A stretch of 63,859 nucleotides of DNA, counting the filler. It is 11 parts of 11 records of this genome, joined end to end, with 100 filler letters (N's around TTAATTAATTAA, not from the genome) between each part and the next. Parts side by side here need not be neighbours in the genome. Positions count along the whole stretch, not along the records: positions 55,942 to 63,859 come from SRR7504441_2096; 10 more parts are not named here. The stretch is one strand, 5' to 3'. The notes under the pieces are model-generated. The model was not told the origin of the DNA. It did no database searches and saw only the letters and a list, made by a program, of their open reading frames with translations. How positions within the stretch are numbered: position 1 is the stretch's first letter; the number at the start of each line of letters is the position of its first letter. Below are positions 7,461 through 63,859 of the stretch, piece after piece. The position numbers and the translations under genes are program-made.

Positions 7461-7560
7461 NNNNNNNNNNNNNNNNNNNNNNNNNNNNNNNNNNNNNNNN
7501 NNNNTTAATTAATTAANNNNNNNNNNNNNNNNNNNNNNNNNNNNNNNNNNNNNNNNNNNN
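7461..7560. other. artificial contig spacer (N-run, TTAATTAATTAA, N-run), recurring at 14571, 21473, 27310, 36818, 40136, 44365, 47956, 52313 and 55842
   Basis: Identical 100-nt block with stops in all six frames at ten positions; genes are truncated on both sides. Confidence 0.98.
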
Positions 7561-14570: not shown

Positions 14571-15154
14571 NNNNNNNNNNNNNNNNNNNNNNNNNNNNNN
14601 NNNNNNNNNNNNNNTTAATTAATTAANNNNNNNNNNNNNNNNNNNNNNNNNNNNNNNNNNNNNNNNNNNNCTCGGACGTGGGGGCCTCGGACGTGGGGGC
14701 TTATTCAGTGCCCGGAAGAGTGGATGCAGCCCACGCGCATCCCCACCCGCCGTGCCTCCCTCGAGCAGGTCCTCGCGCGCCGCCTCCAACCTCTCGATCG
14801 CCACCGCGCCGGCCGCCGCATCCCTCGCGCCATCCGCCGGGGCCTGCGGCATCCCGAGCTCCCGTTGGTGCATCGGACCAGTCCGCCAAGGGGAGCGCAG
14901 CTCGTCCGGGCCGCGGGTGGGCGCTGATGTCCGAGGTTCGCCCGGGCCGGAGCCGACCGGCGGCTGGTCTTGTGTTAGTGCGGGTGTCCGAGAGCTGGTC
15001 ACGCCTCGATCGGCCGACCAACCCGCCTCGCCTACGGCTCGGCTTGGCTCGGCAGACCCGTTCTTGCGCTCGCTTGGAGGCATGTGTTGGCGTCTCTCCC
15101 AGGAAACCGAGCGTTTGTCCGTTTGAATCCGTTGAATCTCGGATTGTGCCAAGA

Positions 15155-21446: not shown

Positions 21447-21572
21447 GCCTTGCCCGCACGGCCGGCAGCGCANNNNNNNNNNNNNNNNNNNNNNNNNNNN
21501 NNNNNNNNNNNNNNNNTTAATTAATTAANNNNNNNNNNNNNNNNNNNNNNNNNNNNNNNNNNNNNNNNNNNN

Positions 21573-27309: not shown

Positions 27310-27409
27310 NNNNNNNNNNNNNNNNNNNNNNNNNNNNNNNNNNNNNNNNNNNNTTAATTAATTAANNNNNNNNNNNNNNNNNNNNNNNNNNNNNNNNNNN
27401 NNNNNNNNN

Positions 27410-36817: not shown

Positions 36818-36992
36818 NNNNNNNNNNNNNNNNNNNNNNNNNNNNNNNNNNNNNNNNNNNNTTAATTAATTAANNNNNNNNNNNNNNNNNNNNNNNNNNN
36901 NNNNNNNNNNNNNNNNNACCAGCCGGCAACAGACGGAGGCGGACATGGCAGCACGGGTACCGGTGATGTTTCCGTTATTTTTATTCGCGGCA

Positions 36993-39992
36993 ATGCGGCA
37001 GTTTCTGCTGCTCTCGGTGGCGGCTTGCCTGGGCCTTTGCCTGGGCCAGGCCCCGCTGTGCCCATCCTCGAGCTGCTGGTCTAGCCCGCCCTACCCCGAC
37101 GGATCTGTCCTGCGGGCGCTCGCGGTTGCCCCCGGCACCGTCAGGCTCACCACCATCCCTCGCGGGGCGCCGGCCGGGCCCTTCTCTCCAGTGGACCTCA
37201 CCCTGCCGCAGCCGCAGCCGGCACCCAGGCTCAACCTGGACGGGACCACCGACGCAGCCTTCCAGCTGAGCACGCCCGAACTGGTACTGACGGTTTCCAA
37301 GAGCTCCCCGGTGGCCAACGTGACCCGCAAGGCAGACGGCGCGCTCCTCTCCGCAGAGCAGGCGGCGCCCTCGCTGACCAGCGGGGCGGCGTGCGGCGAT
37401 GCCTCGTCCGGCGGGCCCATGGCCGGTGGCCGGTGGCCCGGGTGCGACGCCTGTTGCCTGCGCGCCACCCGGTCGCTGCAGCCTGGGGAGCAACTGTTCG
37501 GCGGTGGGGTCCAAATGTACAGTGGGCCGGGCCAGCGCGGCAAGGCACTCTTCCTGCAGACCAACGCCATCGTCGGTCAGTACCCGGGCTGGTCGCACGT
37601 GGTGGCGCCGTTCTTTTTGAGCTCCCGAGGGTACGGAATCCTGCTCAACACGCACGGTTACTCGTACTGGGACATCGGCAAGACAGTGCCCGGTGTCCCA
37701 AGCACCCCGCCGGCCACCGCTTGCGGCACGGCCTACGCCGACCCAGCGAGTGGCCGCGCCACGGGCTCGGTGTCGCTCTCTTGCCCTGGGAGCCCTGCCT
37801 GGAAGATAGCAAGCGTGCAGTTCGCGTCCTACGGGCTTCCAACCGGAGCGTGCGGGTCGTTCAGGCCCGAGACAAAGCACTGCGGGCAGGTGAACTTGAC
37901 TGCCAAAGTGGCCGCTCTCTGCATCGGCAAGGCCTCCTGTACAGTGGGCCCCGTCTCGAATGCTTTTGCCGGTAGCGATCCATGTCCGGGCAACAATCAA
38001 AAGCGGCTCAGCGTGTCTGTTGTGTGCGCGGGACCGGGTCCAACCCCGCCTCCGCCACCTGCCGGGCCAGGCAGTGTGCTGATCGCCAGCCCGGACCCGG
38101 TGGTGGATCTGTTCTTCTTTGCTGGACCGAGCTTCCACTCCATCCTTGAGCAGTACTCTGGACTGACTGGTAGAATGTCGCTGCCACCCAAATGGGCCTT
38201 AGGACTCTGGTACCACCCCAAGGAAGACAACAACCAGACCGGGGTCCTCCAACTCGTCTCGCACTTCGAACGAGCCAATGTCAAGCTCAGCGCTCTGACT
38301 CTGGAGCCGCCTTGGCAGACGCACTCCTATTCGTGCACTTATGTGTGGAATCCTGGCAATTTCTGGGACCCCGACGGGTTCATCGCCAATCTTACCGGTC
38401 GGGGCGTCAAGCTGACCCTCTGGGAGCACGGGTATGTCTATAACAGCACCGGCTCGCCGCTGTATGAGCCACTGCTCGAAGAGAACTGCGCCGCTGACTG
38501 GATGACTTGGCAAGGGCTTACACCTGACTTCACGCTGAACCGCACTCGGGCGGCATTTGCTGCCTACCACACCAAGACCTTTGTCCAGGCCGGCGTTGCA
38601 GGATTTAAGCTCGATGAGTGCGACGGCAACCCCGGTGCCTACGATCCGGGCTCTCGGAGCACAAAGCGCTGGTTCTTCCCGGATAACTCTTCGTTCCCGT
38701 CCGGGCTGAATGGAGCTCAGGTGCATAACCTGTTTGGTATGTATTACGCCAAGACGTTCCACGACATGTTTGAAGCAGCCGGGATGCGGACCTTCCTCAA
38801 GGCTCGGGCCAACTATGTGGGCGGACAGGCCCGGCCGACCACCTTTTACAGTGACTCCTACGACCTACCCAACTACCTGCTCGGAGTTGTCAACAGCGGC
38901 TTTGGCGGCTGGGTCTTTGCGCCGGAGGTTCGGCTCAGCAAGAGCGATTCGGACTTTGCGCGCCGGGCGCAGCTGATGCTCTTCTCGGCCCTCGCTTCGA
39001 TGGATGCCTGGAACACTGGATTTACGCCATGGGAGCCTGACGTTTCCGCGGCCAATGCGGCCATGTTCCAACGCCTCGCCGCCGAGCGGAGCCGCCTCGA
39101 AACCTTCCTGTACTCAGCATATTACCGCCAGAGTCGGACCGGCGTATCGGTGGCTCGAGCGCTGGTGGTGGACTTCGAGGCCGATCCAGGATGCTTTGGT
39201 GTAGCTGACCAGTTCTTGCTTGGGGATGGGTTGATGGTGGCCCCGGCCCCGGTGAATGCGTCGCAGCGCGATGTCTACTTCCCTGCTGGTGCCAATTGGA
39301 CAGACTACTGGCGGACCAACAAGACCGTACTGGCGGGTGGTGGCACCGAGGCGATCTCGACACCAGATGATACAATTGCGATCTTCCAACGAGTGGGCTC
39401 TGTGATCCCCCTGCTGACAAAGACGACAGGGAGAGATGGCGGTGGGGGACATCTTTTGACGCTACGATTCGACGCATCGGCCAGCTCTGCGTCAGCAGCC
39501 AGCGCTCGGACGGTTGTGTATGACGACGATGGCATCACTGCCTCTGGTGCGATAGGCTTTGGCTATTTCGCGATGGATGTCGAGACTGCATACACAGGAG
39601 ATGGCACAGGTGGAGCAGTGATGTGGCGCACAAGCCGGCGTGAGAGTGGCAGCAAGGTGTGGCAACCGTCGTGGCGGCAGCTGCAATTCGAAGCAATCGG
39701 TGCGAGCGTGAAAAAGTGGTCTGCTGTCGCCTGCAAGGGCGATTGGCCCGCGCTGTCACTGTTGGGGCAAGAGGGCGATAGAGATGACCGCTGGCGGGAG
39801 ATTCCCCACTTGATTCTGGACCGCAACGCCTCAACTGACCTGCGAGTGTTGTTGAGTCAGCAGAATGCTCCTGTGTGGACAGTAATGACGACCGCTGGAG
39901 ATGGGCTGGTCAAGGCAGTGGTCGCGATCCCATTCTCGACCCACGGAAATGCGCTCGAGTGCAAGCCGATTATAAACCGTGAAGTGTTGTAA
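36993..39992 (+). CDS. secreted glycoside hydrolase family 31 with an inserted SUEL/galactose-binding lectin domain
   Basis: Signal peptide MRQFLLLSVAACLGLCLG; APFFLSSRGYGILLN; YSGLTGRMSLPPKWALGLW; nucleophile region GFKLDECD; DQFLLGDGLMVAP. Lectin LSC..IASVQFASYGLPTGACG..C.GKASC..F.SDPCPG..KRLSVSVVC. Intronless. Confidence 0.9.
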   Translation: MRQFLLLSVAACLGLCLGQAPLCPSSSCWSSPPYPDGSVLRALAVAPGTVRLTTIPRGAPAGPFSPVDLTLPQPQPAPRLNLDGTTDAAFQLSTPELVLTVSKSSPVANVTRKADGALLSAEQAAPSLTSGAACGDASSGGPMAGGRWPGCDACCLRATRSLQPGEQLFGGGVQMYSGPGQRGKALFLQTNAIVGQYPGWSHVVAPFFLSSRGYGILLNTHGYSYWDIGKTVPGVPSTPPATACGTAYADPASGRATGSVSLSCPGSPAWKIASVQFASYGLPTGACGSFRPETKHCGQVNLTAKVAALCIGKASCTVGPVSNAFAGSDPCPGNNQKRLSVSVVCAGPGPTPPPPPAGPGSVLIASPDPVVDLFFFAGPSFHSILEQYSGLTGRMSLPPKWALGLWYHPKEDNNQTGVLQLVSHFERANVKLSALTLEPPWQTHSYSCTYVWNPGNFWDPDGFIANLTGRGVKLTLWEHGYVYNSTGSPLYEPLLEENCAADWMTWQGLTPDFTLNRTRAAFAAYHTKTFVQAGVAGFKLDECDGNPGAYDPGSRSTKRWFFPDNSSFPSGLNGAQVHNLFGMYYAKTFHDMFEAAGMRTFLKARANYVGGQARPTTFYSDSYDLPNYLLGVVNSGFGGWVFAPEVRLSKSDSDFARRAQLMLFSALASMDAWNTGFTPWEPDVSAANAAMFQRLAAERSRLETFLYSAYYRQSRTGVSVARALVVDFEADPGCFGVADQFLLGDGLMVAPAPVNASQRDVYFPAGANWTDYWRTNKTVLAGGGTEAISTPDDTIAIFQRVGSVIPLLTKTTGRDGGGGHLLTLRFDASASSASAASARTVVYDDDGITASGAIGFGYFAMDVETAYTGDGTGGAVMWRTSRRESGSKVWQPSWRQLQFEAIGASVKKWSAVACKGDWPALSLLGQEGDRDDRWREIPHLILDRNASTDLRVLLSQQNAPVWTVMTTAGDGLVKAVVAIPFSTHGNALECKPIINREVL

Positions 39993-40460
39993 GTAAGCGT
40001 TGGTAGCTTCTAGGTAGCTTCCCATAATCCCATTAGATAAAGAATTACTTAGTATTAGAGCTTTACTTGTCTCCAATGCCAACGGTTAAGTAATATGGTA
40101 TCTCTTAGGCCTTGTGTTGTACAAGGCTATGTTAGNNNNNNNNNNNNNNNNNNNNNNNNNNNNNNNNNNNNNNNNNNNNTTAATTAATTAANNNNNNNNN
40201 NNNNNNNNNNNNNNNNNNNNNNNNNNNNNNNNNNNCTGTTTATCCAGGTCGGGGCAGGCGCCCAACGCCCAATTGCAGGACCAACGCCCTCTCCGCACGG
40301 TGACTTGGGCAGGCTCAGGCAGTCTAATTTAAAAAGAAAAATCTTGTAATATACTTGTACATTAAATATTTTTTATTGTATTGCAATTGCATGGGGAGTT
40401 CAGATTGCGTGTAGTTCACGACAGCATGACATTGAATTCATATTGAATTCAAGTGCAAGA

Positions 40461-42593
40461 TTAACCAACATCGATTGGGCGATCCCTGGATCCACCATCA
40501 ACAAGCACCAAATCCTCGTTGCTAGTCACGTCCCCCGCGGCCTTGGCCTCCCAGTACTCATTCAACAAGATCGGGCACTCCAGATTTTCCTCGGGCTCCC
40601 AGGTGTCATCATCAGGTCCGTATGCCTTCCATCGGATCTTGTATTCCACAGTGCTATCAGTTTGTCTGTGATCCAGAATTGAACTCACTTCGTCCATCAG
40701 CTCGACTTCATCCAACACCGAGGGATCATTGTTCTCTTGAACTGCAGGTTTCGACTCCTTCGCGGTACCAGCTCCCGCCATGCAAGTCTGTAACACTTCG
40801 CGTCCACCCTCAGCCACGGTTGAGGTCTTCTCGGGGGCTCTCGGTGCGCTGTGCTCACCACGGCCGAGCCGCTGCCGCTTGGCTGGTCGTTGTCCCACTG
40901 TCTTTGCCTCGTTTGTCTCGCGGGGGGCGACTGATGACTCGAACGCCTCAAGCAACCGGCGTTGCCGGTCTGGAGAGGGCGGCCACTTCTTATGCCCGGC
41001 CTTGTTCTGAAGGAACACCACAACGGTATCGTGCGAGGCGGTGACCAACCTCTCTCGAAGGTGCTGATTCCCAGCACGATACGAGTGCTGACCTTTTCGG
41101 ACAGTCAGGTGAGTCCTGTAAAACGGCCGGAGAAGAGCGTGCATGCCTGTGACATCGTTCCAATGCGGCGCAGGGTAGAAAAGTACAAACGAAAGAGGCT
41201 GAAAGCTTGCGCCGAGCATTCTGGCAAGATGGTCCTCCACCACGGCCGATTTGATGTTGAAGGGAGGGTTGACTTCAAACGAGCCCGACTTCGGATTCAG
41301 CTGGAAAAAGTTGCCCAATGAACCGAAACAACGGTCGGACTCAAATATGCTGCAGAAACTGGGTGTGAGTGCATTGAGTGGATTCGCAAAGCACTCAGTG
41401 GAGCAGTCAAAGTCGCGTTTGAGACATTCAAATACAGCCACAGGCAGGGCACCGTGCTGGCCAGGGTCCGAGACCAGGAGCATGGCGTACCGGACGAGCA
41501 TAACCAGCATCCGGCCATGCATTCGGTGAGGATCGCCCCCGTGCTTTCTGTATCGAGCCACCAAGCGTTCGTAGCACCTTCTGGTGAGCCTCAGCCTGTC
41601 CTGTATCGCACAGGTGAGTGTTTTGTGTAAACGCCACCGAAGCTGCATACAATCTGCCTGACAGCTGGCCGTGGCATTGATGCTCTCATCAGTCCAATAT
41701 TCGTCAGCCCGGGACCGTATCGCGGTCATTTCTGACACTAGTCGATCTACCTCGTGCAAGACCTCCGCTGCTAGCACCTCCGGCTGAGGCTGACGCCGTT
41801 CTGACCGGAGCGCAGTCCGGATCTGGGCAATCAGGTACTGCAGGTCGCCCCGCGGCAACAGCGGCTCAACCAGTGTCTCGGCCCGGCCCGGCAGCGTCGA
41901 GGCCTCGAAAACCCAGGCCGTGACTGCCCTGCGCGCGGCATCAGTGTCGATTCTACCGGATGTCCGCCTGACCAGCAGGCCGACCACTGAATCAGTCCAG
42001 CTGTTGTGCAGATGGAGCGCCTCGTCCGGCGATTCCTCGCGCAGCCGCACCTGAAGGGCCGCCGGGGCTGCGGCCACCCACGGGTTTCGGACCCAGAGCT
42101 CTACGTGATGTACCACGATCGAGCCATCCGGCCCGGGGAAGCCCTCCTTCCACAGCCGGTACGCCCCGAGCGCGTAGAACCACTTCCTAGCCGAGCAGCT
42201 CTTCATGGACGAGCCCGAGAGCAGCGTGTTGCCGCTGTTATCGAACTGCAGCCCGTTCCAGCCGGTGGTGGTATGGTCGCACTGTATCGGCTGGTACCCG
42301 TCCACACCGCGCGACCGCTTCTGGTACGGATTACTCCGCTGCCACCAGCGCTGCTCGCCAAGGTGTGGCTGGCCCGGCCAGAGTAGCCTGAGCTCGAATC
42401 TGCCGTCCGGGCCCCGGAAGTTCTCCAGCTCATCCAGCCTGGCGAAGTTGCCCCCGTCGGCCTCCAGCCCGAGCGACCAGCAGTCCCTGGGCCAGAGCCC
42501 CCCCCGCGGGTGCACCCGCACCGAGCATTGCCGGAGCACCAACACCTCCGCCGGCCCCTGGACAGCGCTTGGCCTCCAGGGCTTGGCCTCCAT
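40461..42593 (-). CDS. PCIF1/CAPAM-like adenine-N6 methyltransferase fused to a C-terminal chromodomain
   Basis: ECFANPLN..FCSIF..D..FGSLGNFF..SGSFEVNPPF..PLSFVLF..H.Y..G.QH; chromodomain EVSSILDHR..VEYKIRWKAYGPDDDTWEPEENL. Likely start MEAKPWRP. Confidence 0.85.
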   Translation of the reverse strand: MEAKPWRPSAVQGPAEVLVLRQCSVRVHPRGGLWPRDCWSLGLEADGGNFARLDELENFRGPDGRFELRLLWPGQPHLGEQRWWQRSNPYQKRSRGVDGYQPIQCDHTTTGWNGLQFDNSGNTLLSGSSMKSCSARKWFYALGAYRLWKEGFPGPDGSIVVHHVELWVRNPWVAAAPAALQVRLREESPDEALHLHNSWTDSVVGLLVRRTSGRIDTDAARRAVTAWVFEASTLPGRAETLVEPLLPRGDLQYLIAQIRTALRSERRQPQPEVLAAEVLHEVDRLVSEMTAIRSRADEYWTDESINATASCQADCMQLRWRLHKTLTCAIQDRLRLTRRCYERLVARYRKHGGDPHRMHGRMLVMLVRYAMLLVSDPGQHGALPVAVFECLKRDFDCSTECFANPLNALTPSFCSIFESDRCFGSLGNFFQLNPKSGSFEVNPPFNIKSAVVEDHLARMLGASFQPLSFVLFYPAPHWNDVTGMHALLRPFYRTHLTVRKGQHSYRAGNQHLRERLVTASHDTVVVFLQNKAGHKKWPPSPDRQRRLLEAFESSVAPRETNEAKTVGQRPAKRQRLGRGEHSAPRAPEKTSTVAEGGREVLQTCMAGAGTAKESKPAVQENNDPSVLDEVELMDEVSSILDHRQTDSTVEYKIRWKAYGPDDDTWEPEENLECPILLNEYWEAKAAGDVTSNEDLVLVDGGSRDRPIDVG

Positions 42594-42681
42594 CGCGGGC
42601 GCGGGGCCTGGGCTGTGTGCCCGTCCTATCACTGCGTGCCCCGTCCTGGATGCCGTTGCCAGCACTGACTGCAGTGATGAG

Positions 42682-43533
42682 ATGAAGGGTTGGGTCGCGG
42701 TGGATGACTTGGGTGGGCCGGCTCCTCGAGCTGTAATGGACGATTCGGCGCGGCCAGGGGTTGCGGTCAGTGCGGGCCGGCCCATCAGCAGCAATCGATA
42801 CGTGTGCCAGGGCTGCGGCGCGAGTGCTACTGCGGCACAGGTGCTGGCTCGGTGCCAGGGCTGCGGTGGAAGCAAATACCGAGTCGCAAATGCCGAGCCA
42901 GCGACGGGCAGCGAGTACTGCGACGGGAGCCGCCAAAAGAAGGACCGGTCTTCTCGCAAAGTGCTCAGGCGAAGGGAGCGCAGAGCGAGCACGCTGCGGG
43001 TCGAGGAGCCTCCGAGGGTGCCGGCAGGGCGGCAGGCCGACCCACCCCCAGTCCAGGCGACGCCGGAGAACACAGCCTGGTTTAGGCCCGGTGACGCCAA
43101 CTGCAAGCATCCTGGCAGTAGGTGCGCCAAACTGAGAACAGACAACTCCTCTGCACCAGCCATTGAAGAGCGCCGTGACAGCGAACAGGCGCGTGAGGCA
43201 GCCAGTGACGTTCTTTATCACCTCGCCCAGCATACGCTAACCTGCCTTCGAAACAGAAGAGATAACGGGGAGATCGACCGAAAGGAGTATAAAAAGCAAA
43301 AGGCCGAGCTGCAGCAGCGCTATCACGACACAATAGCCACAGAGCTACTCGAGAGATCTAGGCACAAAGCCAGTCGATGCACAGAAACAGAGACGCCTCC
43401 GGAGACGCCTACAGACAGACAAGCCCCTAGTATTGAACGAAAGTCAAGAGGTCGAAGAAGATTTGAATCCCGATTTAAAATAGAGAACCATGCCATTGCG
43501 GAAGGTGTACGGCACGAGCATTCGCTTTTCTAA
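42682..43533 (+). CDS. hypothetical protein with CxxC..CxxC zinc-ribbon-like motif
   Basis: YVCQGCG...ARCQGCGGSKY followed by a helical charged C-terminus. Confidence 0.45.
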   Translation: MKGWVAVDDLGGPAPRAVMDDSARPGVAVSAGRPISSNRYVCQGCGASATAAQVLARCQGCGGSKYRVANAEPATGSEYCDGSRQKKDRSSRKVLRRRERRASTLRVEEPPRVPAGRQADPPPVQATPENTAWFRPGDANCKHPGSRCAKLRTDNSSAPAIEERRDSEQAREAASDVLYHLAQHTLTCLRNRRDNGEIDRKEYKKQKAELQQRYHDTIATELLERSRHKASRCTETETPPETPTDRQAPSIERKSRGRRRFESRFKIENHAIAEGVRHEHSLF

Positions 43534-44320: not shown

Positions 44321-44464
44321 TGTTGCAGTCAGTCATCCAAACCTGACCGCCAAAAAGAAAGCTANNNNNNNNNNNNNNNNNNNNNNNNNNNNNNNNNNNN
44401 NNNNNNNNTTAATTAATTAANNNNNNNNNNNNNNNNNNNNNNNNNNNNNNNNNNNNNNNNNNNN

Positions 44465-47955: not shown

Positions 47956-48136
47956 NNNNNNNNNNNNNNNNNNNNNNNNNNNNNNNNNNNNNNNNNNNNT
48001 TAATTAATTAANNNNNNNNNNNNNNNNNNNNNNNNNNNNNNNNNNNNNNNNNNNNGCTACTAGCCATTGATATGAATAACAAGGTGGTTTTGTACGGTAT
48101 TCATGATTGCACACAATCGCCTCGATTGTCAGGCAT

Positions 48137-52312: not shown

Positions 52313-52767
52313 NNNNNNNNNNNNNNNNNNNNNNNNNNNNNNNNNNNNNNNNNNNNTTAATTAATTAANNNNNNNNNNNNNNNNNNNNNNNNNNNNNNNN
52401 NNNNNNNNNNNNACCCCGGGGACGGCAGCTGGTGGGTCCAGCGAGACTCTGACGGCCTAGCCTTCAGCCCAGCGGCACCCTGGCAGCTGGAGGCAGACTG
52501 GCGAGAGCTGCTGGACGCCGGCAGCGACAGTGACGGGTTCGAATCAGTGCGTTGCTGCATAAAGCCGGCAAGTGTGCGGCTTGAGTATGCTTTCACGGCC
52601 ATCGAGATTGCATTAGCTGAGCATGAAATAGGGGCGGCAGCGCAAGCACAGAGCCTCGACTCGGCATCTAGAATAGGTACTGCTGGGCGATACCTGGATT
52701 TACCCATACACCGGTTTTTATAAGATTAATGCCACGCCATGGCATGAATTACAGATCTAGATAAATA

Positions 52768-55841: not shown

Positions 55842-55941
55842 NNNNNNNNNNNNNNNNNNNNNNNNNNNNNNNNNNNNNNNNNNNNTTAATTAATTAANNN
55901 NNNNNNNNNNNNNNNNNNNNNNNNNNNNNNNNNNNNNNNNN

Positions 55942-58900
55942 ATGGAGAATGGCGTGGACTCTCTAGCAGCCACTGAGCTGCGTAACTTGCTGCAGCATGA
56001 AGTTGGGACGTCTGCTAAAGTAACAAGCACCATCGTATTTGACTATCCAACCGCTGCTGCGATTGCCCAGCTGCTCATGACACAACTTGATATACGCACA
56101 TCCTCAGCATCGTGCCAGCAGCCTGTTGCACTCACACACTCTGAGAATGCGTCGACCGCACGTCCTGCATCTCCTCTGGTCATAACTGGAGTCGAGTGCG
56201 TAACACCTGGTGGAGCTCATGATTCTGTATGGGAAGGTCTTTGCTTGGCGCACAACAGTGTGACCAGTATTCCATTCCAGCGTTTTGATGTACAGGCAGC
56301 CCCGGGGCTCATCTATGTGCACCATGGCCACTTTGTTGCTGGTGCAGAGATATTCGAACCAGTGCTTTTTGGGATGAGCATAGCTGAGGTGCGCGCCACA
56401 GACCCAAGTCATCGCTTATTGTTGAAGGCTGTGCTACCGGTCTTTGAACAGTCTGGCCACAGGAAAACCTCGCTTCTGAACAGCAGCACTGCAATGCTTC
56501 TCGGAATCTGCAACACAGCTGACTGGGGGCGCCTGTGCAGTGAGATTGGAACCGACACTGGAGTGTACGGAGCTCACGGATCGGATGGGGGTGCTGCTGC
56601 TGGTCGGGTGTCTTACCTCTTCGGGTTGAAGGGCCCGTGCTTCAGTGTCAACACTGCGTGCTCGTCGTCGCTGGTTGCCCTTGATGCAGCATACATGAAC
56701 ATGCATCTACGCACCTGTAAGCAGGTGGTGGTAGCTGGTGTGCACTTGCAGCTTCACTCTTCAAGCTTTGCTGCGTTCTGTGCGCTGCATGCACTATCTC
56801 CCGACGGGCAGTGCAGAACCTTTGACGCACGCGCTGACGGATATGGACGGTCCGAAGCTTGTGGCGCAGTGCTGCTGGAGGAGCGTCCAGAGATGTCCAG
56901 ACCTGAGCTCCGAGGGACCGCCACCAATCAAGATGGTCGCAGTGCCAGCTTTATGGCGCCGAACGGGCCGTCACAAGAGCAGGTAGTGCTGGCTGCGATG
57001 GGCCAACAGATTCGTTTAAGTGGTATAGAGGCCCATGGCACTGGGACAGCGCTTGGAGATCCGATTGAGGTCGGGGCTCTTGGCCGAGTGCTGAGCAGGG
57101 TAGTGGAGCCACAGCAACCGGTGGTGCTCGGAGCATACAAGTCTCAGATTGCACACTCGGAGGGCGCTGCAGGGGTTGCTGGCCTGGCCAAGGTGTTGAT
57201 GGCGTTACAGCGTCAGTGCATCCCACCAAATCTACACCTGAGGGAGGCCAACCCTAAGCTCGAGCTTGAAGGGGTTGCCCTGGTGATTGGCTCAGAGTGT
57301 GGTGAGATCTGTGAGGACAGCACAGGCCTGCTCCAAATAGGAGTAAGTTCGTTTGGGTACTCTGGGACCAACAGCCACGCAGTGCTGGCTGTGGTGCATG
57401 GTGGTGGTACTGTTGATGTCGATGAAAGGCTGTCAGTGCGGTATCAGCACACAGCCTTTGACTGGAAGCAGGACAGCAAAACAGGCATGAATGTAGCCTC
57501 CGTGGCAAATCCAACAGGAGTTGGATTCAGACGCTCTGTTGCTGGATTGGATTACATCTATCGCGTCACCTGGTCTACGCTCAATGCTCCCCAGAGTCAC
57601 CTGTTCTCTGAAGGAGCTCTCGTTCTAGCTTGGCCTTCTGCTGGCATAGAGGGTATAACTCATCAGGGATGGCATAGAGGACGGCCCCTTCACTACAAGC
57701 AGGTTGTCTGCAGCGAGAAGGTGCCAATCGCCTGCTTGATGCAACTGGCACAGAGTGTTCCCAATCAGATCAATCTCTTTCTGATAACCAGCAGTGAGCT
57801 TGGACCGCAGTCTGATTCGTGGATGGGCAGGGGTGTTGCTGGGCTTGCACGTTCCATCCGGCTCGAGCGGCCGGGGCTCAGCTGTTCTCAGATCGATTCC
57901 GGCCGAGGAATTTCCAGTGAAAGTTTGGGCGTTTATCCTGTTGAGCAAGAGGTGGTGTTGCGTCAAGCCCAGCAGCTGGCACCAAGGTTGCACGTGGTGG
58001 TGGGTGGTAATGGACTGGATGCTCCAATTGCATTCGATCTGCAGAGCTCGTGTATGATCAGCGGTGGACAGGGTGCTTTAGGGCTCCTGGTTGCGAATTG
58101 GTTAGCCAACCATGGTGTTGGTAAGCTCCTTTTGCTCTCGCGGAGTAGTCAAAGAGGACAGGGTGAGAGTTGGAACTTGCTGCAGGCAACCAGTGCTAGC
58201 ATCAGTGCAGTTGCGGCTGATGTTTCGATCGCTTCGACCTGGTTCTCAACACGAGGCGTGATTCATGCTGCTGGGGTGGATTTGTATGCAGAGTTGCAGG
58301 AGCTTAAGCGGGCCCAACTGCAGCGTGTGGTCGCACCCAAGCTCTATGGAGGTCGAAATCTGCACAGTTACTTAGTCAGCACTCCGATTGATCACTTCAT
58401 GGTATTCTCTTCAGCATCTGCTCTAGTTGGGCTAAAAAGGGGCACTTGCTACGCTGCAGCTAACAGTTGCCTCGACGAGTTGGCGCAAGCCCGGCGGGCA
58501 GCGGGTCTTGCAGCACAGAGTGTCCAGTGGGGTGCCTGGACGGACATTGGGATGGCAGCTGGGATCGATGCAACTGCTTATGTTGCTGGAGGAATCACCA
58601 ACTGCATTGGGCTTAACGCCCTCAAAGGTACCATCTCCAGCTGGATGTTTTGCACGGCTTTTATTGCAAAGATGGCCTGGCGCCAATTCCTACAGCTGTA
58701 CTCCGTTGTTCCTCCAATGCTGGCTGGATTCTATCGGGTTGAGCCAGCGAGGGTTGTGCAGCAGCGCGACAGCACTATCTGTAGATCCCTGGACGCGATG
58801 TCAGCGGATGATCGCACTACCAAGCTGCAGATGCTGGTGCAGGAGTGCGTGTTTGATGTAGCGCAACTTCAAATGCACCTTGACGAGCCACTGATGGAGG

Positions 58901-61900
58901 CGGGGTTGGACTCGCTTGCTGCCATTGAGCTTGGGAATCGCTTGTCCCGACTTACAGACATCTCAGTGCCGCCACATCAACTTTTCGATTATCCTACCTG
59001 TAAACATCTTGCACAGTATCTGGATAGCTGCCATTCCTCCTGTGAGGATATGCCTGTGATGCCACCAACCAAGCTGCTGAAATCCTCGCCAGTTGGTATC
59101 GCAACATCATTGTCTACTCTGCCAGTGCCTCTCGATGAGGTGTGGGGCATGATATACTCTGCATGCGATACAACCATGAAAATCCCCGCCGCGCGATTCG
59201 ATCCTCAGACTGTTTCTCAGTATCACGAAAGTCTCTATGTCCACTTGGGCCACTTTCTTGGCAAATGCCAGCTATTCGATCACGACTTCTTCCACATTGG
59301 AGTGGCTGAGGCAAGTTGCATCGACCCTGCACAAAGGATGTTACTTGAAGGGGTTTATGCAGCTTGTCAAAAAGGTTGTATAACTCGCAATTCTACTTTT
59401 GAGGTTGGCGTATTTGTGGGCACGAGGTACTCTGCAGCCTGGCCGTTGATCCAATCCGCTAAAGATCGGCCGTTTGGAACATACTTCATGCTTGGTGCGG
59501 ACCTTGCCGCGTCCGCTGGCCGTGTTTCGTATCTCCTTGGTCTAAAAGGTCCGAGCATGTGCATCATGACGGGATGCTCCTCTGCTCTAGTTGCTGTTGA
59601 TACAGCCTACTGCAAGTTACGTGATAGCATTGACGATATGTATGCTGTGGTTGCCAGTACAAACCTTTTGCTGCACTTTTCGGAGTGGGTGGGGATGTGT
59701 TCGCTTCATGCACTCTCAACAGATGGCCGATGCAAGTGGTTTGATATTTCTGCAGATGGCTATGCCAGGTCAGAATCATCAAGCTCGGTGCTACTTCACA
59801 CACAACGCTCCGAGTTCACACTTGAGGGCTCGTCGGTCAATCAAGACGGCTCCAGTGCTAGCTTCATGGCCCCAAGTGGTCTGGCACAACAGGCAGTGAT
59901 CTTTTCAGCATGCAGGGAAACGAGCATAGGAACAGCAGTCAGCCATTGTGTCGAAACTCACGGAACAGGAACAGCATTGGGCGATCCCATCGAAATACAC
60001 GCACTCCAGGCTGCTTTTAGTTCGTGTACCGATCTCATTCTCGGATCTCTCAAGTCTCTCATTGGGCATTCAGAGGCGGCTTCTGGCCTGGCAGGCCTAG
60101 TGAAGACTATGCTGGCCTTGTCAGCTGTTCATGACAGCCCGAATCTGCATTTGCGTCAAGTCAATCCTCATTTACTCTCAGAACTCGTGCGACCTCACGG
60201 AGTCACAATAGAAAGAGGCTTGATGGACTACTCGAGGAGAGAACTTTGGGCAGCGTTTCCTGAGGATAGCAAGCGTCATGGCATGAAGGTAGATGTCTTC
60301 TACGTCCATCCAACAACCGCGCTCACAATGACAGAGCACTTGAACTTGCGTCTCACCGATGACATGAGCAGCAATGTACGTAAGAAAGTCGGCTCTCAGA
60401 CTCGTGTTTTCGCCGATGCAGCGGTGTTTGCTCCATTCTATCAGCAAGCGACGATTCGAGCCTTCAGCGATGACTATTGCACCTCTGAAGAATCATCCAG
60501 TGCGCTCGATCTCGCTTATAGCGATGTTCGCAGAGCGTTCTGGACTTACATGTCACATTATAACCGGAACTCCGATGGCAGCCGACGGCCGTTCTTCTTG
60601 GCTGGACACTCCCAGGGTTCTCTGCACTTGGCGCGACTTATCAAAGAAGAATTCAATCCTCTCCTTTCTGCCACTGGCATCATTCAAGACTCCTCGGAGA
60701 GAGCTGAATACAGATCTCTTCTCGTATGTGCTTACCTAGTGGGCGCTGCTGTCGGGCCTGCTTTTTGGGGGGCACCAGATGGCACTCGCGGATTCATTCG
60801 CCATGCACGACATGCCCACGATTGTAGTGGTGTGTATGTTACATGGTGCACAGTTGGACAGGGCGTTCAACATGTGCCTTGGCTTCCGCCTAGTGACCAA
60901 CTAGATGCTGTGGCACACAATCCAATATCCTGGACCTTGAATGATGGAGAAAAAACACGCTCTGAAGCACACATGGGCATGTTTGATTCAGATGGAAGCA
61001 TTATCAACCGTGGACTCACTTCAGTTGTGTCTGACGTCAAAGGACCGTTCGTTCGGGTGTGGGATTCTGTGAATCGAGATTTATATGGCACTTTTACCTT
61101 CAAAGGCACAGGTGGCGACTATCACTTTGGTGATTATGACCTTTTTTCTGTCAACATGAGGCACAATGTTCGGCAACGTGTTGATTCTTATCTGGAACAT
61201 TGTGCGAGTGCTTCCTCAGGAGCCGTACTGATGCACCATAGTGATTTGTTGGGTGACGAACGGTTCATGCTTCCAACATCACAAGTGAGCATTGGTCCTC
61301 GCCAACTAGCTCCCGGTGATCAATCTGCTGGAATTAGTTCCTTCGGTTATACTGGCACCAATGTTCACACAGTAATAACACACCATCTTGGTTGTGTAGA
61401 ATCAAACTTCGAGTCAACGAGCCACCTCCTCTACCGGGGCATCTCGTTCCCATGGTGGGAGGAAAGTTCCATCTCAAGCTCGTTGCCAAACGTGGGTAGT
61501 GTTCATCAAAGCTCGTCCTGGGAGAAGCACTGGCCGACAGCTACGTGCTCCTACATTTCACATCACCGCGTGGGCCTGGCTCCAATAATGCCAGGCACGG
61601 CATTTATCTGCTTGGCATGGAAGACTGCGTGTCGTTCCGATTCTGCCAACCTGTGCATTGTCGGTGCGAGGTTCGATACGGCGCTCTTCTTGGACTGCAA
61701 AAGACCTATGTTGATACTTACACAAGCTGCAAGTGGCCCAAATATTGTAGTCAATATCCAGGCAAAGGATTCTTTAGGTCGTGTAGTGGAGCATGCAATG
61801 GTGACTTTGTCAAATGCGCCCTCTGGGAGAAGCACTTCAGGTTGTGTCACTACTTGCATGAACCATTGCCGCAGCACGGAAGCAAGCTGGGTGACTGGCA

Positions 61901-63859
61901 ACAGGTATGCCATCAGCTCTGACTTTGCTTGCAACACGGCATATCAGCAGGTATCGAGTGTTACCAACGTGATTCACACCCATAAAGCGTACAAGTCAGA
62001 ATCTGATAGCATCAGAGAGATCCAGACCAGGTATACAGACTGTATCTTGCATCCAACCGATGGGAAAGGTTTGGTCAAAACCAGTTATTTACGATGCTCG
62101 CAGCTAGAGCTAACCCAGAGTCGTGGTCTGCTGTACAAGGTGTCATGGACTGCAGCAGGCGCATCTGGAAGCCAAGATCTTCGAATGTCCATGGAAGCAT
62201 GGCTGGTGTTCGATAGCACGTTGTTGGACACTGGAAACTGGACAATGAGGGCCACTGGAGTGATGGCTAGGGGCGAGCTGTGTACGATATTGGCTGCGGC
62301 TGAGGAGAGCAGGAGTCTGTGCATCTGTTGCTGCCGCACGGGTTCCAGCTCGTCGATTGGCGAAATCTTGTATGCAGCACAGGTTGCAGCTGGCGCCGCG
62401 TTGCGTATATGGATTATATCGTGTGGCAACATAACAGGGCTATCTGGCCTTGCCAAATCGGTCAATGCTGAGAGGAATGCACTGATCAGTTGTGTAGCTA
62501 TGCAGAGTCGGTTGAGTTTGTTCCAAGCGGAGCTTATTCTGACCTTTGGTCATAGCCACGACGATAGTATACTTGTTGACACTAACAACCAGCTGCACCA
62601 ACCCTATTTGGCTCGAGAGCTGCGGTGTGAAGCTGGTAGGCCTTTACAGTTAGGCCTGCAAAACCGAGGCTCGTTAACCTCGCTGATCCAGCAACCACAG
62701 ACCTCGCAGCCATGTATCACTGTGGAAGTTAAGGCGGTGGGGCTCAACTTTCGTGATGTTCTCAACATACTCGGAATGTATCCTGGTGATCCTGGGCCAC
62801 CAGGCGGTGACTGTGCCGGCTGCATCTATGCAGATAACTCCAAAGGAGAGCAGAGCGTTTTTGGTTTAGCCCTTGGAAGCCTCAGAGCCTATGCATGTAG
62901 CGATCCTCGCTTGCTTGCTGCGATGCCTGGGAGGTGGACTTACCCTGAAGCTAGCGCAATGCCCACAGTATGGTTGACAGTGTGGATGACGCTGGAGCAG
63001 TCGGATGGCATCTGTAGAGGCTGCTCTGTGCTGATCCAAGCTGCCACAGGCGGTGTAGGCATTGTTGCAGTAAAGTTTACCCAGCAAGGAGGAGCACGGA
63101 TCTGTGCTACAGCTGGGCGGGCAGAAAAGCAGGCATTCTTGCGTGCACTTGGCGTGCATATGGTGAGCACCACTCGAGATGGCCAGATGTTTTCGCGTGA
63201 CATGTGCTCTGTGCTTGGCGATTCGACCCGAAAGTTGGCAGTCGTCATGAATAGCCTTTCGCATGACCAGTACATTCCATTGTCAGCCGCCGGGGTTGGT
63301 GAAGGTGGCAGATTTGTTGAGATTGGGAAGCGTGGGATCTGGAGCCTGGCTCCAATGGCAACGCATTATTCGCACTTGCGATACTCTGTAGTAGAGATGG
63401 ATACTCAGTCCGCACTCGACCCGGCCTGGCAGCACAGCGGACTACAAGTTCAGGGTGTTCGGTATAACGAGATGCACTTGCTGCCCCTTCACCAGTATCA
63501 ACTTCAGAGTCACGCTCAGGAGGCGTTTCAATTGCTGCAACGAGCCAGCCATATCGGAAAAGTGGTGGTCTTGCTGAGACTGCCCGTCGAGATTGGCTGC
63601 ACTGCCAACACAGCAGTCACTGGAGGTACAGGTGGATTGGGGCTTCTGGTCTGGGCCTGGATAGCGGAAGGCGGATCAGACAGGTCAGTGCTGCTATCGC
63701 GTAGTGGGCAGATCGACTCGCCCAGGCACCTGCGCAGCGCAGCAAATCATAGTGTGCAAATCGACCTGTGTGGTCTGCAATCATGGCCCTCAGCATTGAA
63801 ACGAATTGAATGTGGGGTGAGTGGTGTGGTGCACTCTGCTGGCGTACTGGCTGATGCAT
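55942..63859 (+). CDS. modular type I polyketide synthase (AT-less): ACP-KS-KR-ACP-KS[DUF3089-like insert]-DH-ER-KR, partial at both ends
   Basis: Single open frame of at least 2639 aa with no introns. ACP GVDSL (Ser 55960). KS1 NTACSSSL (Cys 56659), HGTGT, AHSEGAAG. KR1 GGQGALG, YAAAN. ACP GLDSL (58912). KS2 MTGCSSAL (Cys 59575), HGTGT (59959), GHSEAASG (60067). DH HRVGLAPIMP (61564). ER VGLNFRDVL, AATGGVG, ASHIGKVV. KR2 TGGTGGLG, HSAGVLAD. Confidence 0.96.
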   Translation, partial: MENGVDSLAATELRNLLQHEVGTSAKVTSTIVFDYPTAAAIAQLLMTQLDIRTSSASCQQPVALTHSENASTARPASPLVITGVECVTPGGAHDSVWEGLCLAHNSVTSIPFQRFDVQAAPGLIYVHHGHFVAGAEIFEPVLFGMSIAEVRATDPSHRLLLKAVLPVFEQSGHRKTSLLNSSTAMLLGICNTADWGRLCSEIGTDTGVYGAHGSDGGAAAGRVSYLFGLKGPCFSVNTACSSSLVALDAAYMNMHLRTCKQVVVAGVHLQLHSSSFAAFCALHALSPDGQCRTFDARADGYGRSEACGAVLLEERPEMSRPELRGTATNQDGRSASFMAPNGPSQEQVVLAAMGQQIRLSGIEAHGTGTALGDPIEVGALGRVLSRVVEPQQPVVLGAYKSQIAHSEGAAGVAGLAKVLMALQRQCIPPNLHLREANPKLELEGVALVIGSECGEICEDSTGLLQIGVSSFGYSGTNSHAVLAVVHGGGTVDVDERLSVRYQHTAFDWKQDSKTGMNVASVANPTGVGFRRSVAGLDYIYRVTWSTLNAPQSHLFSEGALVLAWPSAGIEGITHQGWHRGRPLHYKQVVCSEKVPIACLMQLAQSVPNQINLFLITSSELGPQSDSWMGRGVAGLARSIRLERPGLSCSQIDSGRGISSESLGVYPVEQEVVLRQAQQLAPRLHVVVGGNGLDAPIAFDLQSSCMISGGQGALGLLVANWLANHGVGKLLLLSRSSQRGQGESWNLLQATSASISAVAADVSIASTWFSTRGVIHAAGVDLYAELQELKRAQLQRVVAPKLYGGRNLHSYLVSTPIDHFMVFSSASALVGLKRGTCYAAANSCLDELAQARRAAGLAAQSVQWGAWTDIGMAAGIDATAYVAGGITNCIGLNALKGTISSWMFCTAFIAKMAWRQFLQLYSVVPPMLAGFYRVEPARVVQQRDSTICRSLDAMSADDRTTKLQMLVQECVFDVAQLQMHLDEPLMEAGLDSLAAIELGNRLSRLTDISVPPHQLFDYPTCKHLAQYLDSCHSSCEDMPVMPPTKLLKSSPVGIATSLSTLPVPLDEVWGMIYSACDTTMKIPAARFDPQTVSQYHESLYVHLGHFLGKCQLFDHDFFHIGVAEASCIDPAQRMLLEGVYAACQKGCITRNSTFEVGVFVGTRYSAAWPLIQSAKDRPFGTYFMLGADLAASAGRVSYLLGLKGPSMCIMTGCSSALVAVDTAYCKLRDSIDDMYAVVASTNLLLHFSEWVGMCSLHALSTDGRCKWFDISADGYARSESSSSVLLHTQRSEFTLEGSSVNQDGSSASFMAPSGLAQQAVIFSACRETSIGTAVSHCVETHGTGTALGDPIEIHALQAAFSSCTDLILGSLKSLIGHSEAASGLAGLVKTMLALSAVHDSPNLHLRQVNPHLLSELVRPHGVTIERGLMDYSRRELWAAFPEDSKRHGMKVDVFYVHPTTALTMTEHLNLRLTDDMSSNVRKKVGSQTRVFADAAVFAPFYQQATIRAFSDDYCTSEESSSALDLAYSDVRRAFWTYMSHYNRNSDGSRRPFFLAGHSQGSLHLARLIKEEFNPLLSATGIIQDSSERAEYRSLLVCAYLVGAAVGPAFWGAPDGTRGFIRHARHAHDCSGVYVTWCTVGQGVQHVPWLPPSDQLDAVAHNPISWTLNDGEKTRSEAHMGMFDSDGSIINRGLTSVVSDVKGPFVRVWDSVNRDLYGTFTFKGTGGDYHFGDYDLFSVNMRHNVRQRVDSYLEHCASASSGAVLMHHSDLLGDERFMLPTSQVSIGPRQLAPGDQSAGISSFGYTGTNVHTVITHHLGCVESNFESTSHLLYRGISFPWWEESSISSSLPNVGSVHQSSSWEKHWPTATCSYISHHRVGLAPIMPGTAFICLAWKTACRSDSANLCIVGARFDTALFLDCKRPMLILTQAASGPNIVVNIQAKDSLGRVVEHAMVTLSNAPSGRSTSGCVTTCMNHCRSTEASWVTGNRYAISSDFACNTAYQQVSSVTNVIHTHKAYKSESDSIREIQTRYTDCILHPTDGKGLVKTSYLRCSQLELTQSRGLLYKVSWTAAGASGSQDLRMSMEAWLVFDSTLLDTGNWTMRATGVMARGELCTILAAAEESRSLCICCCRTGSSSSIGEILYAAQVAAGAALRIWIISCGNITGLSGLAKSVNAERNALISCVAMQSRLSLFQAELILTFGHSHDDSILVDTNNQLHQPYLARELRCEAGRPLQLGLQNRGSLTSLIQQPQTSQPCITVEVKAVGLNFRDVLNILGMYPGDPGPPGGDCAGCIYADNSKGEQSVFGLALGSLRAYACSDPRLLAAMPGRWTYPEASAMPTVWLTVWMTLEQSDGICRGCSVLIQAATGGVGIVAVKFTQQGGARICATAGRAEKQAFLRALGVHMVSTTRDGQMFSRDMCSVLGDSTRKLAVVMNSLSHDQYIPLSAAGVGEGGRFVEIGKRGIWSLAPMATHYSHLRYSVVEMDTQSALDPAWQHSGLQVQGVRYNEMHLLPLHQYQLQSHAQEAFQLLQRASHIGKVVVLLRLPVEIGCTANTAVTGGTGGLGLLVWAWIAEGGSDRSVLLSRSGQIDSPRHLRSAANHSVQIDLCGLQSWPSALKRIECGVSGVVHSAGVLADA
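60220..61200 (+). other. DUF3089-like alpha/beta (Ser) hydrolase domain nested inside KS2 of the PKS
   Basis: DYS..LWAAFP, VDVFYVHPTT, FAPFYQQA, LAYSDVRRAF..Y..HYN, RPFFLAGHSQGSLHL, LVCAYLVG, NPISW and YHFGDYDLFSVNMRHNVRQRVDSY, in the order expected for that family. Confidence 0.85.

Follow-up and report, generated by a model that had tools for sequence, protein, structure and literature searches.

A DUF3089-family serine hydrolase domain very probably nested within a ketosynthase of an acyltransferase-less polyketide synthase from an uncultured marine eukaryote

In the interrupted adenylation (A) domains of nonribosomal peptide synthetases (NRPSs), a second catalytic domain is lodged in a loop of the core domain, and both parts are thought to be active (available text of PMC8341866). 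The host in those enzymes is an A domain of the ANL fold, and the guest is mostly a methyltransferase. Here, we describe a comparable arrangement in which the host is a ketosynthase (KS) and the guest is a DUF3089 hydrolase. The second ketosynthase (KS2) of a modular polyketide synthase (PKS), encoded on the last contig of the 63,859-nucleotide (nt) stretch of DNA that was analyzed (the window), very probably contains a genuine in-frame nested domain of this family (the insert). To our knowledge, the KS is the central enzyme of every PKS and fatty acid synthase. A catalytic domain nested in a KS would be new, whereas DUF3089 esterases and nested domains in NRPS A domains are already known.

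The DUF3089 proteins, or lipolytic family XV carboxylesterases, are known as stand-alone enzymes, often with a signal peptide, and as tandem or otherwise fused proteins. The original prediction considered their function unclear, which is outdated: Est10 was assayed as a short-chain esterase with peak activity at C4, and five further DUF3089-linked enzymes (EstD2, Est5S, EstGK1, EstZ3, and EstWSD) had been characterized before it (available text of PMC4431682). The insert shares with this family the Pfam match, the GHSQG, YHxxD, and HPTT motifs, and the predicted alpha/beta-hydrolase fold, and differs from the known members in being nested in another enzyme and in carrying Gln in place of Arg in the PRYRQ motif.

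In bacterial systems, type II thioesterases hydrolyze aberrant acyl thioesters in trans, the activity proposed below for the insert. PKSs of the trans-acyltransferase (trans-AT) type rely on hydrolases to rid their acyl carrier proteins (ACPs) of short aberrant acyl thioesters, and the acyl hydrolase (AH) proofreading domains of these systems, such as PksD, do the job that we propose for the insert (available text of bioRxiv 10.1101/2023.08.11.552765). The AH domains have the AT fold and work in trans, whereas the insert belongs to the DUF3089 alpha/beta hydrolases and is covalently built into a KS, and its thioester activity is proposed only. With regard to the synthase itself, the likeness is to the AT-less PKSs of protists (the PKZILLAs of Prymnesium and those of Bathycoccus and Durusdinium), which are likewise eukaryotic, are encoded in intron-free stretches, and consist of trans-AT-like modules. 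The shared module make-up is KS-KR-ACP and KS-DH-ER-KR (KR, ketoreductase; DH, dehydratase; ER, enoylreductase), and the N-terminal part of KS2 is 35-42% identical to the protist counterparts. For the PKZILLAs, 30 candidate DUFs were reported that gave no strong indication of being enzyme domains, and the available text of the PKZILLA preprint, supplementary tables aside, contains neither "hydrolase" nor "esterase."

The PKS contig encodes one reading frame that is unbroken, as originally predicted, and comprises 2639 codons, with the Pfam domain order ACP(partial)-KS1-KR-ACP-KS2[DUF3089]-DH-ER-KR (Table 1). The Ketoacyl-synt N and C domains each match two stretches of the protein (E = 3e-98 and 2e-57), and no Acyl_transf_1 match was detected at E ≤ 0.01 in the 2639 residues of this protein, which is cut at both ends. 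To judge from this domain content, the synthase is of the AT-less, trans-AT-like modular type.

The insert comprises amino acids (aa) 1416-1781 (nt 60187-61284; 366 residues), that is, a linker of 10 residues, a hydrolase of 334 residues, and a second linker of 22 residues. It is located directly after NPHLLSEL (ending at aa 1415) and before the last three KS strands, and is followed by VSIGPRQL, which both the alignment and the model identify as the canonical penultimate KS strand. The nested position thus stands as originally predicted, but the exact bounds had to be corrected to a start after aa 1415 and an end at aa 1781. The motifs on which that prediction relied are borne out by their positions in the translation: PNLHL is found at aa 429 (nt 57226) in KS1 and at aa 1400 (nt 60139) in KS2, SSFGY at aa 469 (nt 57346) and aa 1799 (nt 61336), respectively, and the PNLH-to-GVSSFG spacing is 38 aa in KS1 versus 397 aa in KS2. 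Within the hydrolase, the WAAFP, VDVFYVHP, and NPISW motifs start at nt 60247, 60289, and 60919. In the comparison with CurL, the part of KS2 up to NPHL (aa 1411-1414) and IGPRQLAPGDQSAGISSFGYTGTNVHTVI (from aa 1784) map to consecutive parts of CurL, with a gap of 12 CurL residues. Among the 304 KS domains that could be delimited in this protein and in the best 120 matches among PKS relatives of KS2, the HGTGT-to-GTNxH distance is 96-151 aa (median 109) in all domains other than KS2 and 465 aa in KS2. Two PKS KS domains, in P0168 (aa 2244-2395) and P0175 (aa 177-317), have distances of 140 and 151 aa, respectively, against this median of 109; these modest expansions hint that the region between HGTGT and GTNxH tolerates extra residues.

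Several lines of evidence place the insert in the DUF3089 family. Pfam assigns DUF3089 (PF11288) to aa 1450-1664, between Ketoacyl-synt_C and the last KS strand, which is the order of profile matches anticipated by the original prediction; the match scores 108.5 bits, where the cut-off is 23.4, has E = 4.2e-31, and extends over positions 1-204 of the 207 in the profile. The best stand-alone homolog of the insert has E = 3e-57, and the family match is therefore far beyond chance. A language-model look-up with the insert alone returned 30 matches, all 30 in DUF3089 clusters, with a top score of 0.96. The insert is not an ordinary AT or thioesterase (TE): it matched neither TE (PF00975) nor AT/AH (PF00698), and when aa 1387-1819 were searched against Pfam at E ≤ 1, DUF3089 was the only match apart from a weak one to KAsynt_C_assoc, which corresponds to the start of the KS C-terminal extension. 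The same search gave no match to an intein or Hint-type domain, and no flanking direct or terminal inverted repeats or target-site duplication were found at the insert beyond short matches of chance size. An independent nested gene was considered and excluded, the insert lacking a stop of its own.

The putative catalytic residues are conserved. Ser1557 (codon 60610-60612), in the GHSQG motif at aa 1555-1559 (nt 60604), occupies a column that is (near-)invariant across the 87 rows of the family alignment, and His1728 (61123-61125) and Asp1731 (61132-61134), both in YHFGDYDLF at aa 1727-1735 (nt 61120), fall in the positions H324 and D327, which are at least 90% conserved. Altogether, the insert retains 46 of the 54 columns that are conserved at a level of at least 80% in 86 DUF3089 homologs, including Ser, His, Asp, HPTT, and NPxxW, and deviates at eight (start Met, P24M, W63L, A83T, C227V, A291V, L300V, and R97Q). 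AlphaFold2 (AF2) modeling of the insert alone yielded an alpha/beta hydrolase (pLDDT 84.7, pTM 0.85). Its structural neighbors (VIA), with Z-scores of 9.8-11.8 over about 170-210 aligned residues, include esterase PE8, a P. fluorescens carboxylesterase, the acyl-CoA hydrolase MpaH, acyl-protein thioesterases, and cutinases, with no PKS TE or AT among the 50 neighbors listed; the Foldseek matches are weak (TM ≤ 0.41). A sequence search of the PDB retrieved no solved DUF3089 structure, the best match (E = 0.031) being unrelated. We consider the hydrolase more likely than not to be catalytically active.

KS2 likewise appears to be intact. Cys1212 (59575-59577), His1340 (59959-59961), Lys1371 (60052-60054), and His1376 (60067-60069) align with the catalytic residues of the solved PKS KS domains 7zma and 4mz0, so that the Cys-His-His triad noted in the original prediction is confirmed and extended by the lysine. 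KS2 and the insert were modeled together (AlphaFold, aa 1070-1835) from a composite alignment of 72 rows, consisting of the query, KS1, 20 bacterial KS domains, and 50 DUF3089 proteins. The bacterial domains, 20 of the 24 loci collected, served only as fold-alignment rows; MAFFT spread their KS hairpin residues across the insert columns, and the model still closed the KS fold. The mean pLDDT is 84.3, with low confidence exactly at the two linkers (model residues 346-356 and 692-714) and the tail. Strands 713-715, 725-732, and 737-745 of the model close the KS fold, and the KS part superimposes on solved PKS KS domains with Z-scores of 48-49.5 and an rmsd of 2.0-2.3 A over 370-390 residues, the aligned range being model residues 1..762, on both sides of the insert. 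In the model, the KS fold is thus complete around the insert, including the last strands and the SFGxxGTNxH loop. Together, the Pfam match and the AlphaFold model of both folds uphold the original claim of a full DUF3089 hydrolase nested in frame in a KS.

Continuity of the locus was checked in four public runs (two of the DNA type and two of RNA), which yielded 14 short contigs at 2-4x depth. In both DNA-type runs, parts of the insert and parts of the flanking sequence are present at 95% identity or higher, and no joints were seen in the 14 contigs. The RNA contigs are located only at 59094-59302 and 61646-62005, and the missing RNA cover over the insert is not evidence. Variant sites in other samples are synonymous in 2 of 2 cases inside the insert versus 5 of 11 over the whole 3.5 kb. 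The GC content at third codon positions is 0.47 in the insert, 0.49 in the adjoining part of KS2, and 0.53-0.55 in the rest, with no break.

In a phylogenetic tree of 87 rows, the insert falls into one clade with P0003, P0004, and P0006 (SH-aLRT support 99; 38-40% identity in the alignment). The terminal branch of the insert is 0.64, which is ordinary compared with the median of 0.6, and there is therefore no sign of decay. All three relatives stand alone, with lengths of 410, 395, and 248 aa, and have the NRNxDGSRRPF(I/F)LAGHSQG stretch in common with the insert. They share an MGC... N-terminus and a hydrophobic C-terminal tail, have no bacterial signal peptide, and in our reading look eukaryotic. 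Elsewhere among the DUF3089 proteins, 2-3 tandem copies or fusions are found in P0005, P0007-P0012, P0020, P0059, P0070, P0079, P0119, and P0143, and the fusion partners seen are dockerin, caspase, an Rce1-like protease, and beta-lactamase-like and pectin-acetylesterase domains; as these architectures read, the family is prone to fusions.

Fusion to a KS was found nowhere else in the databases or literature searched. A search of 1.84 billion cluster representatives with the insert produced 1967 matches at E ≤ 1e-3, and none of the 17 proteins longer than 600 aa among the best 150 of these is fused to a KS; the 17 consist of tandem DUF3089 proteins and of fusions to dockerin, caspase, Rce1-like, and other domains. 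In a word-indexed library of 5.8 billion clusters, the proteins of 1451-4619 aa did not include any relative of the insert, and those of 686-2000 aa included 15, none with a KS. Scanning metagenomes with the insert alone gave no relatives; the same with the DUF3089 alignment gave 528 relatives in 598 stretches, and for the best 80 loci, which were examined, no KS, DH, or ER lies within 4 kb (0/80). Viral contigs contained no relatives of the insert. Conversely, PF11288 is listed for none of the best 120 matches among PKS relatives of KS2, which come from Bathycoccus, Durusdinium, EukProt transcripts, and many bacteria at 31-42% identity. The ESM Atlas, queried with KS2 plus the insert, returned only plain KS clusters (scores ≤ 0.83), and a contig scan with the N-terminal part of KS2 found only two loci. 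The publications on DUF3089 that we found deal with esterases or hydrolase classification, none with PKSs, and a literature search for a KS with an interrupting, split, embedded, or nested domain returned nothing relevant. The original statement that no such KS has been described accordingly holds for the databases and literature searched.

The best overall explanation, which we hold tentatively, is an interrupted KS with a nested serine hydrolase that edits or off-loads thioester-bound acyl groups. In this scenario, the AT-less PKS of a marine eukaryote would have acquired, in frame, the mature portion of a free-standing serine esterase of the DUF3089 (family-XV) type, encoded by a gene related to those of P0003, P0004, and P0006. 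The site of insertion would be the KS2 loop that leads from the NPxI turn to the penultimate strand. The KS fold would close round the insert, leaving the hydrolase to hang on flexible linkers of about 10 and about 22 residues, with both active sites, Cys-His-His-Lys of the KS and Ser1557-His1728-Asp1731 of the hydrolase, retained. The KS would then perform condensation, and the tethered hydrolase would attack acyl thioesters that arrive at this module, carried by the phosphopantetheine arm or by the KS cysteine, via acyl-O-Ser. Activity on thioester-bound acyl groups is suggested because Est10 is a short-chain esterase and trans-AT assembly lines depend on acyl-thioester hydrolases. Whether the protein is a bifunctional condensing enzyme, the first interrupted ketosynthase, with an active nested hydrolase acting on the same tethered intermediates as the KS, we regard as evenly balanced. 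The likeliest specific role would be to edit or off-load, by hydrolysis in cis, acyl groups that are short or stalled, although this assignment, taken by itself, is doubtful.

A number of observations weigh against this overall explanation. The contig comes from an environmental assembly, and none of the 14 contigs from the public runs bridges nt 60187 or nt 61284. The relative synonymous codon usage (RSCU) of the insert correlates with that of the rest of the gene at 0.32, the lowest value of seven chunks (0.35-0.59 for the six controls), close to the 0.35 of the adjoining chunk. Gln1501 (60442-60444, in PFYQQA) replaces the Arg of PRYRQ, which is 98% conserved in the 86 homologs and is kept by the three nearest stand-alone relatives; this replacement may entail altered or lost activity or a changed substrate, and we treat it as a deviation within the family that does not concern a defining catalytic residue. 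The structural neighbors form a flat list of generic alpha/beta hydrolases that indicates no specific activity. The two-domain model, with a pTM of 0.63, does not predict how the hydrolase is placed with respect to the KS entrance; modeling of the nested domain with the upstream ACP (aa 955-1045) gave a score of 0.02 against a mark of 0.34, which weighs neither way. Finally, the architecture is known from a single example with no ortholog found.

Of the alternatives, the one that survives best, albeit unlikely, is that the active nested domain is an acyl transferase, or an ester-forming or releasing enzyme, that passes the acyl group from Ser1557 to a hydroxyl or to water. The acceptor might be the beta-hydroxyl made by KS1-KR, and transfer to water would amount to programmed early release. 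The retained catalytic triad is compatible with such chemistry, as is the upstream KS1-KR-ACP module, which, as read from the domain order, supplies a beta-hydroxyacyl chain to KS2; furthermore, the replacement of R by Q at aa 1501 would suit an altered substrate or acceptor, and vibralactone cyclase, an enzyme of the same fold, is among the structural neighbors (Z-score = 10.1). However, Est10 was shown to be a hydrolase, not a transferase (available text of PMC4431682), and no acceptor site is indicated by the sequence.

Clearly less probable is a non-catalytic nested domain that is a structural or docking element, replacing, for example, a missing KS flanking subdomain or recruiting a partner. 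KS2 indeed has no flanking or linker subdomain because just 41 residues (window 61384-61506) separate its end from the first Pfam-matched residues of DH, and the loss of the 98%-conserved Arg would be in line with a non-catalytic role. Against this, the insert keeps Ser, His, and Asp along with the great majority of the family-conserved positions (46/54), and its branch is not lengthened. Pseudo-enzymes usually lose such conserved residues.

It is quite improbable that the insert represents an exon missing from the mature mRNA through skipping or other removal, resulting in an ordinary KS or two isoforms. The contig could be DNA or cDNA, parts of the insert are present in the DNA-type runs, and all KS motifs would be retained if KS2 lacked aa 1416-1781. 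However, the 366 codons are in frame without a stop, and family-conserved coding makes sense only if translated in frame; no joint was seen in the 14 public-run contigs; and the NP-to-SSFG spacing after removal would be 22 aa, compared to 33 aa in KS1, which is below the usual.

We consider it highly improbable that the hydrolase replaces the missing AT and loads malonyl or another unit onto the ACP via the serine of GHSQG. The absence of an AT domain from the 2639 residues, the nucleophile-elbow serine, and the location of the domain about 30 residues before the linker/AT position of cis-AT synthases would agree with such a role, but the fold and family are those of esterases and are not FabD-like, with no Acyl_transf_1 match even at E ≤ 1, and KS1 of the same protein is also AT-less yet has no insert. 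In addition, Est10 hydrolyzes short esters (available text of PMC4431682), and the AT-less protist PKSs are read as using trans-ATs (available text of the PKZILLA preprint). Least probable of all is an assembly artefact fusing a PKS and an unrelated esterase gene, which the environmental origin of the assembly, the 2-4x depth in the public runs, and the lack of an independent contig across either junction would allow, but which would require two separate joins to preserve the frame and to lead back into the same KS at the very point at which its fold continues, despite insert and flank pieces at 95% identity or more in both DNA-type runs and no GC break at third codon positions.

If KS2 does harbor an active nested hydrolase, the KS fold tolerates a 366-residue guest in the loop before its last strands, which would be a natural insertion site for PKS engineering. 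Protist AT-less PKSs would have recruited a host esterase family for on-line chemistry, and the short-chain esterases of family XV would be open to retargeting toward thioesters on carriers. For a eukaryotic AT-less assembly line, the gain would be a built-in editing, off-loading, O-acyl-transfer, or even loading step, with a second active site added to that step of the line. The locus would also offer a concrete and testable way into the enzymology of algal polyketide synthesis, which is poorly understood.

Table 1. Coordinates of the PKS domains, the insert, and the spacers in the window
Feature	Position	Strand	Basis or remark
PKS contig	55942..63859	+	Single open frame, 2639 codons, open at both ends (contig start, window end)
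KS1, ordinary ketosynthase, internal comparison	56170..57396	+	Pfam ketoacyl-synt and Ketoacyl-synt_C, aa 77-433
Module 1 KR domain	58051..58545	+	Pfam KR, aa 704-868
ACP delivering the chain to KS2	58852..59022	+	Pfam PP-binding, aa 971-1027; DSLAA at aa 990
KS2 N-terminal part, 346 residues, up to NPHLLSEL	59149..60186	+	Alignment with solved KS; model pLDDT mostly >85
N-terminal linker of the insert (VRPHGVTIER), 10 residues	60187..60216	+	pLDDT <50, model residues 346-356
Nested DUF3089 alpha/beta-hydrolase domain, 334 residues, aa 1426-1759	60217..61218	+	Pfam, alignments, predicted fold
C-terminal linker of the insert, 22 residues	61219..61284	+	pLDDT <50, model residues 692-714
KS2 C-terminal strands closing the KS fold (VSIGPRQL...AGISSFGYTGTNVHTVITH)	61285..61383	+	Model strands; aligned to CurL 432-461
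DH domain start (Pfam-matched part only)	61507..61695	+	PKS_DH_N, aa 1856-1918
ER domain (Pfam-matched part)	63052..63330	+	ADH_zinc_N, aa 2371-2463
Second KR, after ER	TGGTGGLG motif 63619-63642	+	Pfam KR, 2 stretches in the protein
Ten spacers	7461-7560, 14571-14670, 21473-21572, 27310-27409, 36818-36917, 40136-40235, 44365-44464, 47956-48055, 52313-52412, 55842-55941		

The window consists of 11 separate contigs of 3.2-9.4 kb each, split by ten spacers of the form N44-TTAATTAATTAA-N44, and features on different contigs are therefore not to be taken as genomic neighbors. Pieces of the studied stretch are present in 18 public runs from 11 studies (marine or aquatic metagenomes and metatranscriptomes), with a best share of 0.36. 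The remaining contigs encode eukaryote-typical proteins, including a Piezo channel fragment, HSP70, and an ABC transporter. Because of these proteins and the marine or aquatic origin of the matching runs, the PKS contig is attributed to an uncultured marine eukaryote. One contig (44541-47954, plus strand) is spanned entirely by a frame of 1138 residues, open at either end, for which Pfam gives no match at E ≤ 1e-5. Another encodes, at 36945-39989 (plus strand), a GH31 glycoside hydrolase with an N-terminal SUEL-type galactose/rhamnose-binding lectin domain. A 900-residue protein encoded at 40464-43163 (minus strand) combines a PCIF1-type WW domain, of the cap-specific adenosine methyltransferase family, with a C-terminal chromo domain.

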